Positions 36,068-39,932 of a stretch of 64,000 nt of DNA are shown one piece after another. The DNA comes from Candidatus Paceibacter sp. Its GTDB lineage: Bacteria > Patescibacteriota > Minisyncoccia > UBA6257 > 02-FULL-45-10c. The translations under genes and the position numbers were made by a program. The stretch is from NCBI GenBank assembly GCA_020724845.1, contig DYGE01000004.1, positions 29,751 through 93,750 of the forward strand, given 5' to 3'. The notes below the pieces were generated by a model. It was not told the origin of the DNA. It worked only from the letters and a program-made list of their open reading frames with translations, and did not search any database. The stretch's first letter is position 1. Each line of letters begins with the position of its first letter.

Positions 36068-36096
36068 GTCAATTAAAAAGACGGGGTACCCCGTCT
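36068..36096 (-). terminator. intrinsic terminator ending the Ubl/E1/JAMM operon
   Basis: On the minus strand, perfect hairpin AGACGGGG-TA-CCCCGTCT followed by TTTTAATT. Confidence 0.6.
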
Positions 36097-36108
36097 GTAG
36101 TGAATAGG

Positions 36109-36360
36109 TCAGCCTTTTCGACCGGAGGGCTTTTTGAACTCCAGCCGCTCCTTGCCGGAAAGAACGTAATCCAGATCGTTTACCTCCCGGCCGTCCACAT
36201 AAACCAGGTTGTGGTCCTCGTGGATACTTAGGATTTCCCGAAGCTGTTCCCGAATCTGGCGAACGGTCTTTCCGCCGACCTCGTCCAACTCCATCTCGTT
36301 GGCGCCGCAGATCACCGTCAGTTTCGAGCCCAAAGCAGAGCTCGCGGTATCGGTGTGCAT
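36109..36360 (-). CDS. beta-grasp ubiquitin-like protein (MoaD/ThiS-like Ubl) without GG terminus
   Basis: …LTVICGANEMELDEV…VYVDGREV…DYVLSGKERLEFKKPSGRKG follows the MoaD/ThiS pattern; own promoter (TTGACT-17-TAATAT) and GGAGG RBS 8 nt before the ATG. Confidence 0.55.
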   Translation of the reverse strand: MHTDTASSALGSKLTVICGANEMELDEVGGKTVRQIREQLREILSIHEDHNLVYVDGREVNDLDYVLSGKERLEFKKPSGRKG

Positions 36361-36443
36361 CGTTACTACCTCCTCTCTCCCAGCCTACTGCCTTGCATGA
36401 CAGTGATGGCATATTAACAGATAATCAGTAATAAGTCAACCAT

Positions 36444-36472
36444 CAAAAATGCCAGCTCCGCGAGCTGGCATA
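36444..36472 (-). terminator. intrinsic terminator between the E1-like gene and the Ubl gene
   Basis: On the minus strand, hairpin ATGCCAGCTC-GCG-GAGCTGGCAT followed by TTTTTGATGG; the Ubl promoter lies just downstream of it. Confidence 0.55.
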
Positions 36473-36479
36473 GTAATAT

Positions 36480-37160
36480 TTATCTCTCAATCTTCACCGG
36501 GCGAACTCTGCCTGTCTTAATGTCAAAGTAAGCTTCTCTGTACGGCAATTCTCCGCTTTCCAGCCAAATTACGTAAGAGCTCAACATAAGCCCGGCGGCG
36601 AAGTTGTTAACCGAAACTATCTGCGGCTCTCCTCTTGCAACCAGCTTATCGCAGCCAAGTTCCGCCGGATTCTTGTCCGGAGGATTTTCAATCTCCGGAT
36701 GCTGATAGGTTAGCGGAGGAGTGTGGTCCTCTCCGTTTCTTCGCTCGTATATTTGGACATTCCCATCGTATTTGTCGTTGCCGCCGGAGATCAGAAGTCC
36801 GTTAGACAATTCTCCCATCCTGACAGAAACAACCTTTCGAGTCGCGTGATTATCCACTCCGAGAAAAACAGTGTCTCCTTCTTTAATAAAGAGGTAAGCG
36901 GAATCCGCGTCTATGTAGCGGCCCCTCGCTTCAATCTCCAGCTCCGGGAAAGATTCCTTAAGCCAGATCTTCGTAGCCTCGGCTTTGTTGCCGTTAGCAA
37001 CGTAACGCTGCCTTTCTCGATTGCGACTTTCGTAAGCATCTCCATCCAACAGCAATACTTGCTTGGATGCCCTCTTGCTTTCGGAGAAAACCAAAGTCCG
37101 ACATAAAGGATCAATCAGATTTGTTCCAATGCCGCCGAGACCGATTACTACAACCCTCAT
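36480..37160 (-). CDS. minimal E1-like adenylyltransferase (ThiF/MoeB/HesA family)
   Basis: VVVIGLGGIGTNL Rossmann motif, DGDAYESRNRERQ and GVDNHATR blocks typical of ThiF/MoeB E1s; only 226 aa; start overlaps the JAMM gene stop. Confidence 0.75.
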   Translation of the reverse strand: MRVVVIGLGGIGTNLIDPLCRTLVFSESKRASKQVLLLDGDAYESRNRERQRYVANGNKAEATKIWLKESFPELEIEARGRYIDADSAYLFIKEGDTVFLGVDNHATRKVVSVRMGELSNGLLISGGNDKYDGNVQIYERRNGEDHTPPLTYQHPEIENPPDKNPAELGCDKLVARGEPQIVSVNNFAAGLMLSSYVIWLESGELPYREAYFDIKTGRVRPVKIER

Positions 37161-38446
37161 TATTCAGCCCCCCAAGCATCGCTAGCCTTTCTTTTCGCAA
37201 CCTTTTTATCTCCAGAGCCGAAAAACCAAGACAGGATAGTTCTTCGCGGAAGAAGGCCCTCGCCGTCTTTGGCTTTCGCTTTCTTTTTTGACTCCTCCAG
37301 GGCGGGAGGATGAGATTCTCCCTTGCATACCCTTGGCCGGACAACTTCCTTATCCTTAGGCGCCGGCTTACAACCCTCCTGAACTTTAGCCGCCCTTTCA
37401 GCTTCGTCTTTCACCCTATTCCTTCGCCAAATTCCGACATCCAGGTTTTTGTCCCATTCAGCCGGAGTAGTATAGTTATCCGGAATAACCAGACTGTCAT
37501 CGTCCAGACAAAATTGCATCTTGTCTCGTTGAGATCCGACGCTAAAGACGGAAAAGATACCGCCTTTGGGCTCTTCCTTAACAACAGGAATTATTTTCTC
37601 GCTGGCCATTTTTTCTTTCCGCTCATTGTCGGCAGTCATCGTTGCTCTGTTAGGCTCTTTCACTTCAGAATCAGCGAAAAACCAGGCAAGAATGGAAACG
37701 ATATAAGTAAGCAGGCCCTCGGGTTTTTCCACCTCAACGCTTGAAGTTTCTCTACGAGGCCCGATCTCCGATGCTTCTTCGCAAGCCTTGTTCTTGTTAT
37801 CTGTCACCTTTGCTTCTTTTTTGACCTCAACCTTGGGTTTTTCCGGACTGTTCAAGTATTCCTTCACTCCCCCAAGCCAAGAAAGCGGATCAAGTGTAAA
37901 ACGCTGGCCATTTACCGCCGCCTGGATGCTGATGGAAAAGCTCTTCGGGTGCCTGCTTTGGTCAAAATTGCCGAAGGTCGCGTGTATTCCGTCAAACGAC
38001 TCTTCATCGCACTGGTCGGTGGATGAATGAAAGGCGCTCATCCGGACATGCGAATGGAAGGTCCCCACCGGAAATTCTCCTGCCGGGCTTCTTGGAACTT
38101 CATACCACAGCGAAGCGGGTCCCGGCCTTTGATAAGGAATTGAAACCCGGTAACTTTTATCTTCTGGTTTATACCACAAGATAGCCGCCGCCTCCGTTCC
38201 GTATTTTTCCGCAACCCAGGCGAAAAACCTTGCCAATTCCCTTACGATCTCTTTTGGAATCGGCGGAAGAGCGATCTTCAAAGACGGAGCGCCTTTTTCT
38301 AGGATGCTAATCCGCTCAACCGGCACTACCGCCTCCCAGAACTTCATCTTCTTATGGATAAAGATTCCATTGCTCGCTACCTCGTAAAAAACGTCGGTTT
38401 CCGGCTTTTTACTTCTTCCGTCACGCACCCAGACTGGGAACGTCAT
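37160..38446 (-). CDS. JAMM/MPN+ family metalloprotease (deubiquitinase-like) with long C-terminal extension
   Basis: Canonical JAMM motif HSHVRMSAFHSSTD (H-x-H-x7-S-x2-D) with upstream Glu (…TEAAAILWY…); ~280-aa C-terminal tail including a hydrophobic segment LLTYIVSILAWFFA. Confidence 0.75.
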   Translation of the reverse strand: MTFPVWVRDGRSKKPETDVFYEVASNGIFIHKKMKFWEAVVPVERISILEKGAPSLKIALPPIPKEIVRELARFFAWVAEKYGTEAAAILWYKPEDKSYRVSIPYQRPGPASLWYEVPRSPAGEFPVGTFHSHVRMSAFHSSTDQCDEESFDGIHATFGNFDQSRHPKSFSISIQAAVNGQRFTLDPLSWLGGVKEYLNSPEKPKVEVKKEAKVTDNKNKACEEASEIGPRRETSSVEVEKPEGLLTYIVSILAWFFADSEVKEPNRATMTADNERKEKMASEKIIPVVKEEPKGGIFSVFSVGSQRDKMQFCLDDDSLVIPDNYTTPAEWDKNLDVGIWRRNRVKDEAERAAKVQEGCKPAPKDKEVVRPRVCKGESHPPALEESKKKAKAKDGEGLLPRRTILSWFFGSGDKKVAKRKASDAWGAE

Positions 38447-38480
38447 CCTGCCACCTCCTTGGTGTTTGTTTTTTTGTCGG

Positions 38481-39812
38481 TCACTGGCTCTGCCCCTTCA
38501 AGAATTCCGCCAAGGTCTTTTCAGCCACAACCTCGCAGCGCCACTTTAGGTGGTCGCCAAGATCCGACGCGCTATCGCCGACCTTGCCTCCGAGGCCTTT
38601 CTCAACTTCTGAACGAAGGTCAATAGGCAGGGAAAAATGCGAACCAAGAAAATGCAGCTCTTCCGTCAATCTCTCTTGAAATTTCTTGACTAAAGTTTTC
38701 GCGGCTTTATCCCGGCCGCCTTTCTTCTTGGAGCGGCCGCCGCCAACCAGAAATTTCTCCGATAAGACAGCAACGAATTCCTTAAGATTCATATTAACCT
38801 TAAGCCACGGCAAGGTCAGCATTCTTTCCGGACAATCTTTGGATAACTTCTGCCATTTGCTCATACTGTTAACCTCCGGAATGCGCTTCTGGGCGTCGAC
38901 AATGAAGTAAGTAAGGACTCCTCCAAATTCGCTATCCCAAAACCAGCTAAGAAGCTTTTGATGCCACAAATGATCATTCAGGCTCAATGGAGGCATGCTC
39001 CCTCCAAGGCACCAGTGGTAGGGCCAATTAGAATTGATGTTCGGCAAATTAGGGAAATACAAAGCATCGCTTTCGCTCTTTAAGGACTCCGGTCTGTAGA
39101 AGGCCCAAAACCCCCAAAAGCCATCGTAGCCATCATGGTTCAAATGCAATAATTGGCCGTTTTCAAAACAAACCAAGAAGCAAAACCAGGGGAAAGCCAG
39201 GTGATACTTTATCGGGTGGCCAAAGCTAATGTTGACAGTGCGTTTCTGCGGCGGAAATTCAAGGCAAAAAACATCGTAAACACTTTCACCCTTCTTAATC
39301 CGCCAGTGGAACCTGGTATTCGGAGGCAGTGCGCCGGAAAAGATCACAGACTCTCCCGACTCCTGCTCCGATTTCCAGGATTTCGCGATCTCCTCAAATT
39401 GCTCCTCAAGGATTGTTTTCCAAACGCTAGCTCCGCGAGCGCCGAGCTTGGCGACAAGCTCCTTCCGGAAATTCCTTTCCCCAATCGTTATACATTCCTG
39501 CAGAAGCGGCTTCACTTCCTCGGTAAGCGAACCGAATTTCGGTAAAACATCCTTTTCAATCCAAGTTCGCATAGCGTGGTCGGAATGCTCCTTAAGCAAT
39601 AAACCAAGAGACTTCTCGGCCGATTGCGGAGACTTTTCCGCCACAAGCTTTTTGCTTGAGAGCGGAACCAAATTCGGCAGAAGACTGATCAGCGGACCGG
39701 TATCCAAACGGATTGTCCATCGATTGCCATCCGCGTCGAACAAGGGCTTTTCAACCAATTCAGCCGGCATCACAATACTGCGCTTAACCGACTCCTTCTC
39801 GCTGGCCATCAT
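38481..39812 (-). CDS. hypothetical protein, first gene of Ubl/E1/JAMM operon (candidate E2-like)
   Basis: 443 aa, Trp-rich, no confident family; segment …TVNISFGHPIKYHLAFPWFCFLVCF… loosely resembles the UBC HPN…C active-site arrangement. Confidence 0.45.
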   Translation of the reverse strand: MMASEKESVKRSIVMPAELVEKPLFDADGNRWTIRLDTGPLISLLPNLVPLSSKKLVAEKSPQSAEKSLGLLLKEHSDHAMRTWIEKDVLPKFGSLTEEVKPLLQECITIGERNFRKELVAKLGARGASVWKTILEEQFEEIAKSWKSEQESGESVIFSGALPPNTRFHWRIKKGESVYDVFCLEFPPQKRTVNISFGHPIKYHLAFPWFCFLVCFENGQLLHLNHDGYDGFWGFWAFYRPESLKSESDALYFPNLPNINSNWPYHWCLGGSMPPLSLNDHLWHQKLLSWFWDSEFGGVLTYFIVDAQKRIPEVNSMSKWQKLSKDCPERMLTLPWLKVNMNLKEFVAVLSEKFLVGGGRSKKKGGRDKAAKTLVKKFQERLTEELHFLGSHFSLPIDLRSEVEKGLGGKVGDSASDLGDHLKWRCEVVAEKTLAEFLKGQSQ

Positions 39813-39892
39813 TTCCTCCTTCGTGTTCTTTCTCTGATACTACGTCAAAGAACGCTGGCTGTATTATATGAAAAATTTGACAAAATGTCAAA

Positions 39893-39932
39893 CCAAAAGC
39901 CGTCCGCCAGCTGGCGGACGGCTTTTGAATTT
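39893..39932. terminator. bidirectional palindromic terminator upstream of operon
   Basis: Perfect 10+10 palindrome CGTCCGCCAG/CTGGCGGACG flanked by an A-run and a T-run. Confidence 0.55.

Follow-up and report, generated by a model that had tools for sequence, protein, structure and literature searches.

A four-gene cassette on the chromosome of a Candidatus Paceibacter strain as a probable minimal relative of PRTRC-type ubiquitin-like conjugation systems

Evaluation of a 64,000-nucleotide stretch of Candidatus Paceibacter sp. DNA (assembly GCA_020724845.1, contig DYGE01000004.1, positions 29,751 to 93,750; hereafter the window) focused on a minus-strand cassette at window positions 36,068 to 39,932. 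It codes for a ubiquitin-like protein (Ubl), a minimal E1-like enzyme, a JAMM-type protease (JAB) and a 443-aa protein that the initial annotation had left uncharacterised and that is likely the E2-like component. We consider it the best explanation, and a fairly probable one, that this cassette is a minimal relative, located on the chromosome, of the PRTRC systems (NCBIfam TIGR03734-03741), corresponding to row 6d in Table 1 of Iyer, Burroughs & Aravind 2006 (Ub-like, JAB, E1-like, E2-like, plus alpha-helical protein), in which the Ubl would pass from E1 over the E2-like protein to a target and be removed again by the JAB. As judged from the protein sequences, these systems, and not the Bil systems suggested initially, appear to be its closest relatives, both E1 and E2 being of a type different from Bil. 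The cassette is thus probably a variant of an already predicted class, with the formerly “unknown” gene now explained as a probable E2. All four open reading frames (ORFs) lie exactly where the initial annotation had placed them:

38481..39812, minus strand: E2-like gene, 443 aa; no Pfam, NCBIfam or PADLOC match, linked to Prok-E2_D through its family
37160..38446, minus strand: gene of a JAMM/MPN+ metalloprotease (JAB), 428 aa; Prok-JAB 8.7e-7, PRTRC_A 4.7e-12
36480..37160, minus strand: gene of a minimal E1-like adenylating enzyme, 226 aa; ThiF 6.3e-16, PRTRC_ThiF 4.1e-8
36109..36360, minus strand: Ubl gene, 83 aa, ThiS/MoaD-like; ThiS 0.079, invariant G-x-K-G tail

The order E2-like, JAB, E1, Ubl recurs in about 10 independent loci. 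Because all four proteins have co-linear homologues there, the arrangement is far beyond chance, and the cassette, initially regarded as atypical, represents a conserved family. The loci are as follows:

L001: syntenic relative, 44% identity
L004, L014, L017: four-gene order, Candidatus Yanofskybacteria
L007, L009, L011, L018: four-gene order
L008 (5369-12001), L010 (89-6420): enlarged, with E2-like proteins of 860-880 aa, JABs of 524-607 aa, a Ubl of 157 aa and a second ThiF
L015, L016: cassettes with distant E2-like members
L019 (1985-14727; ENA ERZ27253378, k141_851325): array of four paralogous cassettes in tandem, with mreB/holB on one side and metK/frr on the other

Even the distant E2-like members are encoded directly 5' of JAB, ThiF and Ubl genes. 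In the tandem array, the E2-like gene of the first cassette is split into two ORFs of ~220 aa and the fourth cassette consists of the E2-like and JAB genes only. The enlarged variant is characterized by an N-terminal extension of the Ubl with a weak Rho_N match and by its second ThiF-family gene (~300 aa); in L008 it adjoins SbcCD-like, radical-SAM, WYL and multisubunit RNA polymerase genes. The nearest named relative of the cassette stems from Candidatus Yanofskybacteria, genome and metagenome scans each yielding this type of locus only, and a scan of viral contigs returned no close relative.

The 226-aa protein matches ThiF with 58.7 bits at a Pfam cut-off of 28.1. Its GxGGxG (residues 7-12), D39, R50/Q51, K59, D103-N104 and R108 are invariant among relatives, and the E1 motifs read initially, VVVIGLGGIGTNL and SRNRERQ, are all present. 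Searched against PDB sequences, the family profile retrieved MoeB (4.7e-10) as well as ThiF, Uba4, UBA5, SAE2, MccB and BubCD, with the adenylation domain aligning to MoeB residues 33-171; unlike MoeB and ThiF, the protein has no CxxC zinc motifs. The PRTRC_ThiF model (TIGR03736) is covered nearly completely (residues 1-225 on profile positions 12-244 of 245), at a score below its trusted cut-off (32.9 versus 144.75 bits). Furthermore, an invariant Cys170 (“EL[SG]C[ED]”) is located in a loop in which PRTRC-ThiF and phage E1s likewise carry S-C. We take this position to be the one at which a crossover-loop catalytic Cys would sit (compare ThiF Cys184 and Uba4 Cys225).

The 428-aa protease exceeds the Prok-JAB cut-off of Pfam (29.3 versus 25 bits) and contains the JAMM motif HSHVRMSAFHSSTD recognized at the outset. 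Its catalytic Glu84 and the zinc site H-S-H-x7-S-x2-D (H131, H133, S141, D144) are kept in all relatives; alignments confirmed intact catalytic residues for JAMM protease and E1 alike. The protein is built from a PRTRC-A-like N-terminal domain and the JAB core (together ~1-200), followed by a lineage-specific tail (200-428). The N-terminal domain of ~70 aa is common to the relatives and PRTRC protein A, whose model (PRTRC_A, TIGR03735) aligns to residues 23-169 over positions 31-179 of 192. This match, too, stays below the trusted cut-off (45.9 versus 101.8 bits), and a phmmer comparison with the reference PRTRC-A gave 8.9e-9. The tail is indeed large, as noted initially, with its 230 residues being K/E-rich and not conserved (relatives comprise 244-360 aa); the hydrophobic segment described for it is no clear membrane helix. 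A membrane anchor was rejected on the basis of a maximum Kyte-Doolittle mean of 1.37 over 19 residues with a stretch of ~14 hydrophobic residues. Two tail segments, “SILAWFFADSE” (252-262) and “TILSWFFGSGD” (404-414), within 37160-37850, resemble “LLSWFWDSEF” (residues 287-296, 38925-38955) of the E2-like protein. They occur in the JAB of this genome only, not in those of its relatives, and could be a mimic, a docking motif or a coincidence.

A word-indexed search with the 443-aa protein found a single relative (44% identity), while a full HMMER search collected 315 proteins at E<=1e-3 sharing a common core (residues ~160-360). The family thus comprises at least 315 proteins, this being a lower bound, and it lacks annotation in Pfam, NCBIfam and PADLOC. 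Its layout in the window protein consists of an N-terminal beta domain (~1-60), a long helix (65-150), the beta-rich core (~160-360) and a C-terminal helical hairpin (366-439). Within the core, N-L-P-N (255-258), a near-invariant Cys268 (kept in at least 90% of the members) and W-F-W-x-S-x-F (290-296) stand out as part of a longer family signature, L-P-x-G-T-R-F…E-x-x-P-x-x-R-T…L-A-F-P-[WY]…F-Y-R in its first half and S-x-x-D-x-L-x-x-[PS]-N-L-P-N…[VI]-C-x-G…F-W-x-S-x-F-N in its second.

Individually, 18 of 102 members match Prok-E2_D (PF14460; best 3.4e-6), all of them just under the 25-bit gathering threshold, while any other Pfam family is matched by one of the 102 at most. PRTRC_B (TIGR03737) is matched by two of the 102 (E ~0.002) and not by the 443-aa protein itself; PRTRC-B proteins themselves belong to PF14460. 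Profile-profile comparison (hhalign) of the family core with a broadened Prok-E2_D reference, composed of a bona fide member from a Paenibacillus plasmid (48 bits) and eight PRTRC-B proteins, reached a probability of 74-79% (E ~2e-5, score 38-39), compared with a score of 13.2±2.5 for column-permuted controls (n=40). In this alignment, N-L-P-N falls on P-P-Y-F-N and C268 on the Cys of the Prok-E2_D I-C-I-G. With the close family alone, the probability was 6% against Prok-E2_D and 9.6% (E=0.0034) against a narrow PRTRC-B alignment. The H-P-N motif upstream of the Cys is absent from the family, which shows [PS]-N-L-P-N…C and no His; the E2-like proteins of row 6d likewise do without that His (Iyer et al. 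2006). An AlphaFold2 (AF2) model was calculated from a 23-sequence alignment, the result from two sequences (mean predicted local distance difference test, pLDDT, of 38) not being used. It reached a pLDDT of 80 overall and 84-97 over most of the core, with a small beta domain at the N-terminus leading into a very long helix, after which come a beta meander, the N-L-P-N/C268 loop, helices and the C-terminal hairpin, and it matched three uncharacterised phage proteins with a structural match probability of 1.00. On this comparative evidence, the 443-aa core appears to be remotely homologous to Prok-E2_D (PRTRC-B), and the protein is the probable E2 component of the cassette.

The Ubl ends with L-E-F-K-K-P-S-G-R-K-G directly at the stop codon. 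The observation that it lacks a GG end is correct but misleading, as the tail G-x-K-G with its free terminal Gly is invariant in 12 distinct sequences of the candidate phyla radiation (CPR; consensus L-E-F-x-[KR]-[PE]-[AS]-G-x-K-G). In nine of these 12 the ORF stops exactly at this Gly, the remainder carrying an additional I, C or KLA. As it ends in R-K-G, digestion with trypsin would trim the tail to a mono-Gly remnant. Signals for a beta-grasp fold are sub-threshold, namely ThiS for the 83-aa protein (0.079) and for four of seven relatives (best 0.0018), weak matches of relatives to TGS, Ub-Mut7C and CIDE-N, and weak PDB hits to Ub-like and MoaD/ThiS entries. It is the tail that we regard as decisive. 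The Ubls of CPR, phage and PRTRC origin align end to end (hhalign E=6e-4), and the tail recurs as AGAKG+SDA in PRTRC-C, as TGTKG followed by a stop in phage Arash and three times in Vibrio phage D69.

Comparison with the reference PRTRC locus of Paraburkholderia pPT365 (ParB-E-C-F-B-A-ThiF, in which Pfam assigns C to Prok_Ub, F to alpha-hel2 and B to Prok-E2_D) revealed likeness on several levels. The cassette order E2-like, JAB, E1 corresponds to B, A, ThiF of PRTRC; an extra N-terminal domain is common to the JAB and PRTRC-A; the E1 matches PRTRC_ThiF end to end, with the S-C loop in both; the E2-like core and PRTRC-B share the order N…C-x-G…F-[FW]-x-S-x-F; and the Ubl tail G-x-K-G is found in cassette and PRTRC-C. 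On the other hand, the HMM scores of the cassette are all far below the curated PRTRC cut-offs, and ParB, D, E or F (alpha-hel2) are absent in and near the window cassette and the CPR loci. Moreover, the Ubl gene is located 3' of the triad instead of 5' and its product lacks a Prok_Ub match, the E2-like protein is twice as long owing to an added N-terminal domain and long helices, and the cassette is chromosomal and placed among core genes, whereas PRTRC resides on proteobacterial plasmids or integrative and conjugative elements (ICEs).

The same triad of E2-like, JAB and E1 genes is present in Salmonella phage Arash (gp246c-gp251c region) and in the Vibrio phages D69, D181 and D148. For Arash and D69, the JAB models match at ~3e-33 and the E1 models at 1.7e-21 and 1.8e-8, and the E2-like proteins read “LPFPN…MC[VT]G…SPFN[DN]DL” with Prok-E2_D matches of 0.024 and 4.5e-4. 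The phage Ubls end with T-G-T-K-G. In contrast to the cassette, the phages have E2-like proteins of minimal size (231-251 aa), a Ubl gene 5' of the triad that may consist of three repeats, and an additional helical protein; their proteins show low sequence identity to those of the window (JAB ~30%). In D69, the 263-aa VPHD69_0307 (L021:2259-3050) comprises three tandem Ubl-like units, each ending with [KR]-T-G-T-K-G and the last one followed by INYSK; its gene adjoins the E2-like, JAB and E1 genes. Such a poly-Ubl would need processing by the JAB. In Arash (OQ632216.1), a 66-aa ORF ending with R-R-T-G-T-K-G and a stop (L020:107-307) has the appearance of the module's Ubl; the annotated gp251c (102-320) is read in another frame and could be a mis-call. 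The label “structural protein” of Arash gp248c and gp246c originates solely from their mass spectrometric detection among 116 proteins (PMC10585845). A further module with Prok-E2_D, JAB and E1 genes was observed on the Paenibacillus sp. Cedars plasmid NZ_CP020864.1 (L013:6656-10088). Its E1 gene is apparently interrupted by the insertion of a group II intron-like gene that codes for a reverse-transcriptase domain, with fragments resembling E1 on either side.

Several points weigh against a PRTRC-type conjugation cascade. The literature searched contained no experimental characterisation of any PRTRC-type system, nor a description of the CPR variant, and we infer all chemical steps of the cascade from what was observed, namely motifs, conservation, homology links and gene linkage. 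The 443-aa protein itself matches nothing in Pfam, NCBIfam, PADLOC or PHROGs. The close-family profile found no match in an hhalign comparison with a single PRTRC-B sequence, and family members score 10.3 bits at most with a narrow PRTRC-B HMM, seven of them nevertheless ranking above all 300 decoys. Profile searches against PDB sequences retrieved no match for the E2-like family or the Prok-E2_D-type set, so that no solved Prok-E2_D structure was found by this route, and the sister Pfam family “Prok-E2_C” proved not to be an E2 (PMC10557695). As for the Ubl, its beta-grasp assignment relies on matches that are weak and sub-threshold though consistent, and Prok_Ub is matched neither by the protein nor by its relatives (reference PRTRC-C: 3.4e-24).

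In the cascade we propose, the 226-aa E1, probably a homodimer like MoeB and ThiF, would adenylate Gly83 of the Ubl tail G-R-K-G and take over the Ubl as a thioester on its loop Cys170. From there, the Ubl would move on to Cys268 of the E2-like protein, whose extra N-terminal beta domain and long helices may serve target choice or oligomerisation, before being joined to amines of the target. The JAMM protease would take the Ubl off again and, in relatives with one to five extra Ubl residues or a poly-Ubl, would also expose the terminal Gly. The patchy distribution, the tandem arrays, the relocation between tRNA sites and the homologues on phages and plasmids together suggest an accessory, probably conflict-related function rather than one in core metabolism. 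A regulatory role in the host is still conceivable, given how long the cassette has resided among the core genes of small genomes.

The absence of biosynthetic partners around the E1, JAMM and beta-grasp-like Ubl set, emphasized early on, held up, and with it the preference for protein conjugation over a sulfur relay, there being no conserved sulfur-pathway partner. We regard it as quite unlikely that the cassette is a sulfur-carrier system, in which the E1 would make a Ubl thiocarboxylate for the biosynthesis of a thio-cofactor or metabolite, the Cys protein would act as a persulfide relay and the JAB, in the manner of CysO/Mec+ or QbsE/QbsD, would trim either the carrier or an adduct. The resemblance to ThiS/ThiF and MoaD/MoeB is real in several respects: the E1 has the adenylation domain and ATP-binding residues of these enzymes, its best solved relatives are MoeB, ThiF and Uba4 and its best NCBIfam E-values belong to ThiF models, the Ubl is a small ThiS-like carrier with a terminal Gly and ThiS as its sole Pfam signal, and a rhodanese gene (41693-41989) lies 2 kb 5' of the cassette. 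This gene is missing from the syntenic L001 and all other loci and was rejected as a partner, and no thiG, moaE, cysM or desulfurase gene was found near the cassette in any examined locus. Likewise, the tail is K-G and not the G-G of known carriers, the E1 is devoid of the zinc-binding CxxC motifs, its scores with the ThiF/MoeB equivalog models are all far below cut-off, and it invariably comes with a JAB and an E2-like partner that bears a Cys. Arrays of four tandem cassettes as well as phage and plasmid homologues with poly-Ubl are also hard to fit to biosynthesis. The possibility that the cassette is merely the remnant or cargo of a mobile element is unlikely, though less remote. Its purpose would then lie in maintaining or partitioning the element or in counter-defence, which is also the presumption for PRTRC (ParB-linked, on plasmids and ICEs) and the phage versions, and it would have no host function. 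This would agree with PRTRC as the nearest named families, with homologous triads on plasmids and ~180-kb phages, with a position that varies between related genomes, often beside tRNAs, and with a GC content slightly raised over the cassette (0.48-0.50 versus 0.44-0.46). Yet neither ParB, PRTRC-E, PRTRC-F, integrase, relaxase or phage genes nor att-like repeats surround it, viral contigs hold no close relatives, and a 44%-identical relative at the same chromosomal position argues for long vertical residence.

Membership in the Bil (bacterial ISG15-like) antiphage systems, implying conjugation of the Ubl to phage structural proteins as in Type I Bil, appears very unlikely to us. Bil and Bub share with the cassette the logic of Ubl, E1, E2 and JAB peptidase, with all four functional classes in common, a C-terminal Gly that is exposed or serves for adenylation, and an identical sub-order of E2, deubiquitinase and E1 (PMC10557695, PMC11601603), and the cassette behaves as an accessory module, being rare, patchy, tRNA-adjacent and present in paralogue arrays. 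In contrast, its E1 is a single adenylation domain of 226 aa, and not the ~500-aa enzyme of Bil with inactive adenylation, active adenylation and catalytic Cys domains (IAD+AAD+CYS; PMC10557695) or the E1 in fusions of Bub. The E2-like protein is akin to Prok-E2_D and not to CEHH/BilB, the best family matches are to PRTRC, and DUF6527 is absent. PADLOC gave no match for JAB, Ubl or E2-like protein, its sole matches being weak Cap2-type ones to the Rossmann part of the E1. Finally, a synteny check of the proposed defence-island context found none; the neighbours are core housekeeping genes. This evidence speaks against Bil membership, not against a defensive role as such.

For the interpretation as a minimal PRTRC / row 6d relative, the wider meaning lies in the comparison with CBASS Cap2, Bil and Bub, three bacterial pathways for which genuine protein conjugation was recently demonstrated. 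The prediction of the PRTRC / row 6d class dates from 2006, and the cassette is its smallest version found here. Four genes, no accessory proteins, a Ubl without need of processing and a single-domain E1 render it an attractive minimal system for biochemistry. In addition, a family of at least 315 proteins is now pinpointed as the probable E2 of such systems, the G-x-K-G tail provides a simple diagnostic tying CPR, plasmid and phage versions together, and the finding that such systems are retained in ultra-small CPR genomes, and even multiplied there, hints at an important accessory role. More tentatively, and with considerable doubt on our side, one large bacterial ubiquitination-like class distinct from CBASS-Cap2, Bil and Bub might unite the CPR cassette with the PRTRC systems of plasmids and ICEs and with the modules of phages such as Arash and D69. 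Its hallmarks would be a minimal E1 of one domain that has a Cys in a loop, an E2 of the Prok-E2_D type whose active site reads N…C-x-G, a JAB bearing an accessory domain at its N-terminus and a G-x-K-G Ubl leaving a mono-Gly trypsin remnant. The CPR E2s would have gained modules for target recognition, making them E2/E3 hybrids, and up to four tandem paralogues would represent a diversifying, host-encoded protein tagging used when these episymbionts are in conflict with phages or with the bacteria on which they live.

The genomic context was examined by Pfam, PADLOC and PHROGs scans and by annotation of the neighbours, yielding no defence, integrase or phage genes around the window cassette and no meaningful PHROGs match. 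The window is core chromosome with rpoB, rpoC (compact), ftsW/rodA, yceG, cca and recG; the immediate neighbours of the cassette are chrA, an AstE-like gene, the rhodanese gene, glucan phosphorylase and a mechanosensitive channel. In L001, the cassette starts ~75 nt after tRNA-Ala(CGC) (L001:5394-5467), while in the window 2.5 kb with extra genes separate it from this tRNA (42368-42439). This insert, composed of a Zn-ribbon ORF, rhodanese, the AstE-like gene and chrA, is missing in L001, so that the segment looks like a variable hotspot. The Yanofskybacteria cassette sits exactly between tRNA-Arg(TCT) and tRNA-Pro(TGG) (L004:6472-6546, 9895-9966). In L007, these two tRNAs are adjacent (13173-13696) and the cassette is found on the other side of a penicillin-binding protein (PBP) gene, and in L009 tRNA-Pro (641-712) precedes it by ~230 nt. 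The cassette is thus mobile on evolutionary timescales, moving between tRNA-adjacent sites. A search for att-like repeats around it found none beyond chance-level short repeats. Some cassettes are located beside cell-division or envelope genes, one between ftsZ and ftsA (L018:2738-8455), two beside a class A PBP gene (L004:4044-6347, L007:9903-13040) and one near mreB (L019:221-1234). In gene-dense CPR genomes this adjacency may be chance.

On the level of transcription, the following signals were identified within and around the cassette:

39894..39927, no strand: perfect palindromic hairpin, 15 bp, loop 4, 10 GC pairs, flanking T-runs
39863..39891, minus strand: sigma-70-type promoter TTGACA-17-TATAAT, 12/12 consensus matches
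36449..36471, minus strand: hairpin of 10 bp plus TTTTT, directly 3' of the E1 stop codon
36411..36439, minus strand: promoter-like site TTGACT-17-TAATAT (with TG), 5' of the Ubl gene, 9/12 matches
36079..36096, minus strand: intrinsic terminator at the end of the cassette, GC-rich stem of 7 bp with TTTTT

Both bounding hairpins of the initial annotation are therewith confirmed, the 15-bp palindrome (39894-39927) and the 7-bp stem with its T-run (36096-36079). The former is likely a bidirectional terminator closing the upstream transcript of chrA and an acidic peptide. The cassette promoter follows directly after it and is in turn followed by an AAGGAGG ribosome-binding site and the start of the E2-like gene (ATG at 39812 or 39809); a second AAGGAGG site precedes the JAB gene. 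JAB and E1 genes overlap by 1 nt as noted initially, their junction GAA-TAA-TG-AGG containing the TAATG overlap. The hairpin and the promoter-like site between E1 and Ubl genes suggest that the Ubl gene of this genome may be a separate transcription unit, but the unit of four genes is conserved, since relatives lack the internal hairpin and possess the terminator after the Ubl gene. The hairpin at 36449-36471, a genome-specific element resembling a terminator or attenuator, has no counterpart in the E1-Ubl spacers of L004 and L007, and a hairpin terminator directly 3' of the Ubl gene is found in L004, L007, L008 and L010 as well. An Rfam scan of the cassette returned no credible RNA element. 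The 158-aa ORF downstream was rejected as a member of the system; it is not conserved with the cassette and has its own promoter-like site, located after the terminator that ends the cassette.

Three near-identical junctions of hairpin, T-run and TTGAC(A/T)-17-TA(T/A)AAT were observed at 36040-36100, 36410-36475 and 39860-39930, which suggests a habit of this compact genome in which each terminator abuts the next promoter. Between chrA and the palindromic terminator, a hyper-acidic ORF of 31 aa, MDEEKDLGTEGEEEEMEEEAEEEGEGEEESE, is present on the minus strand (39939-40034) and is listed as a gene in the JGI record.

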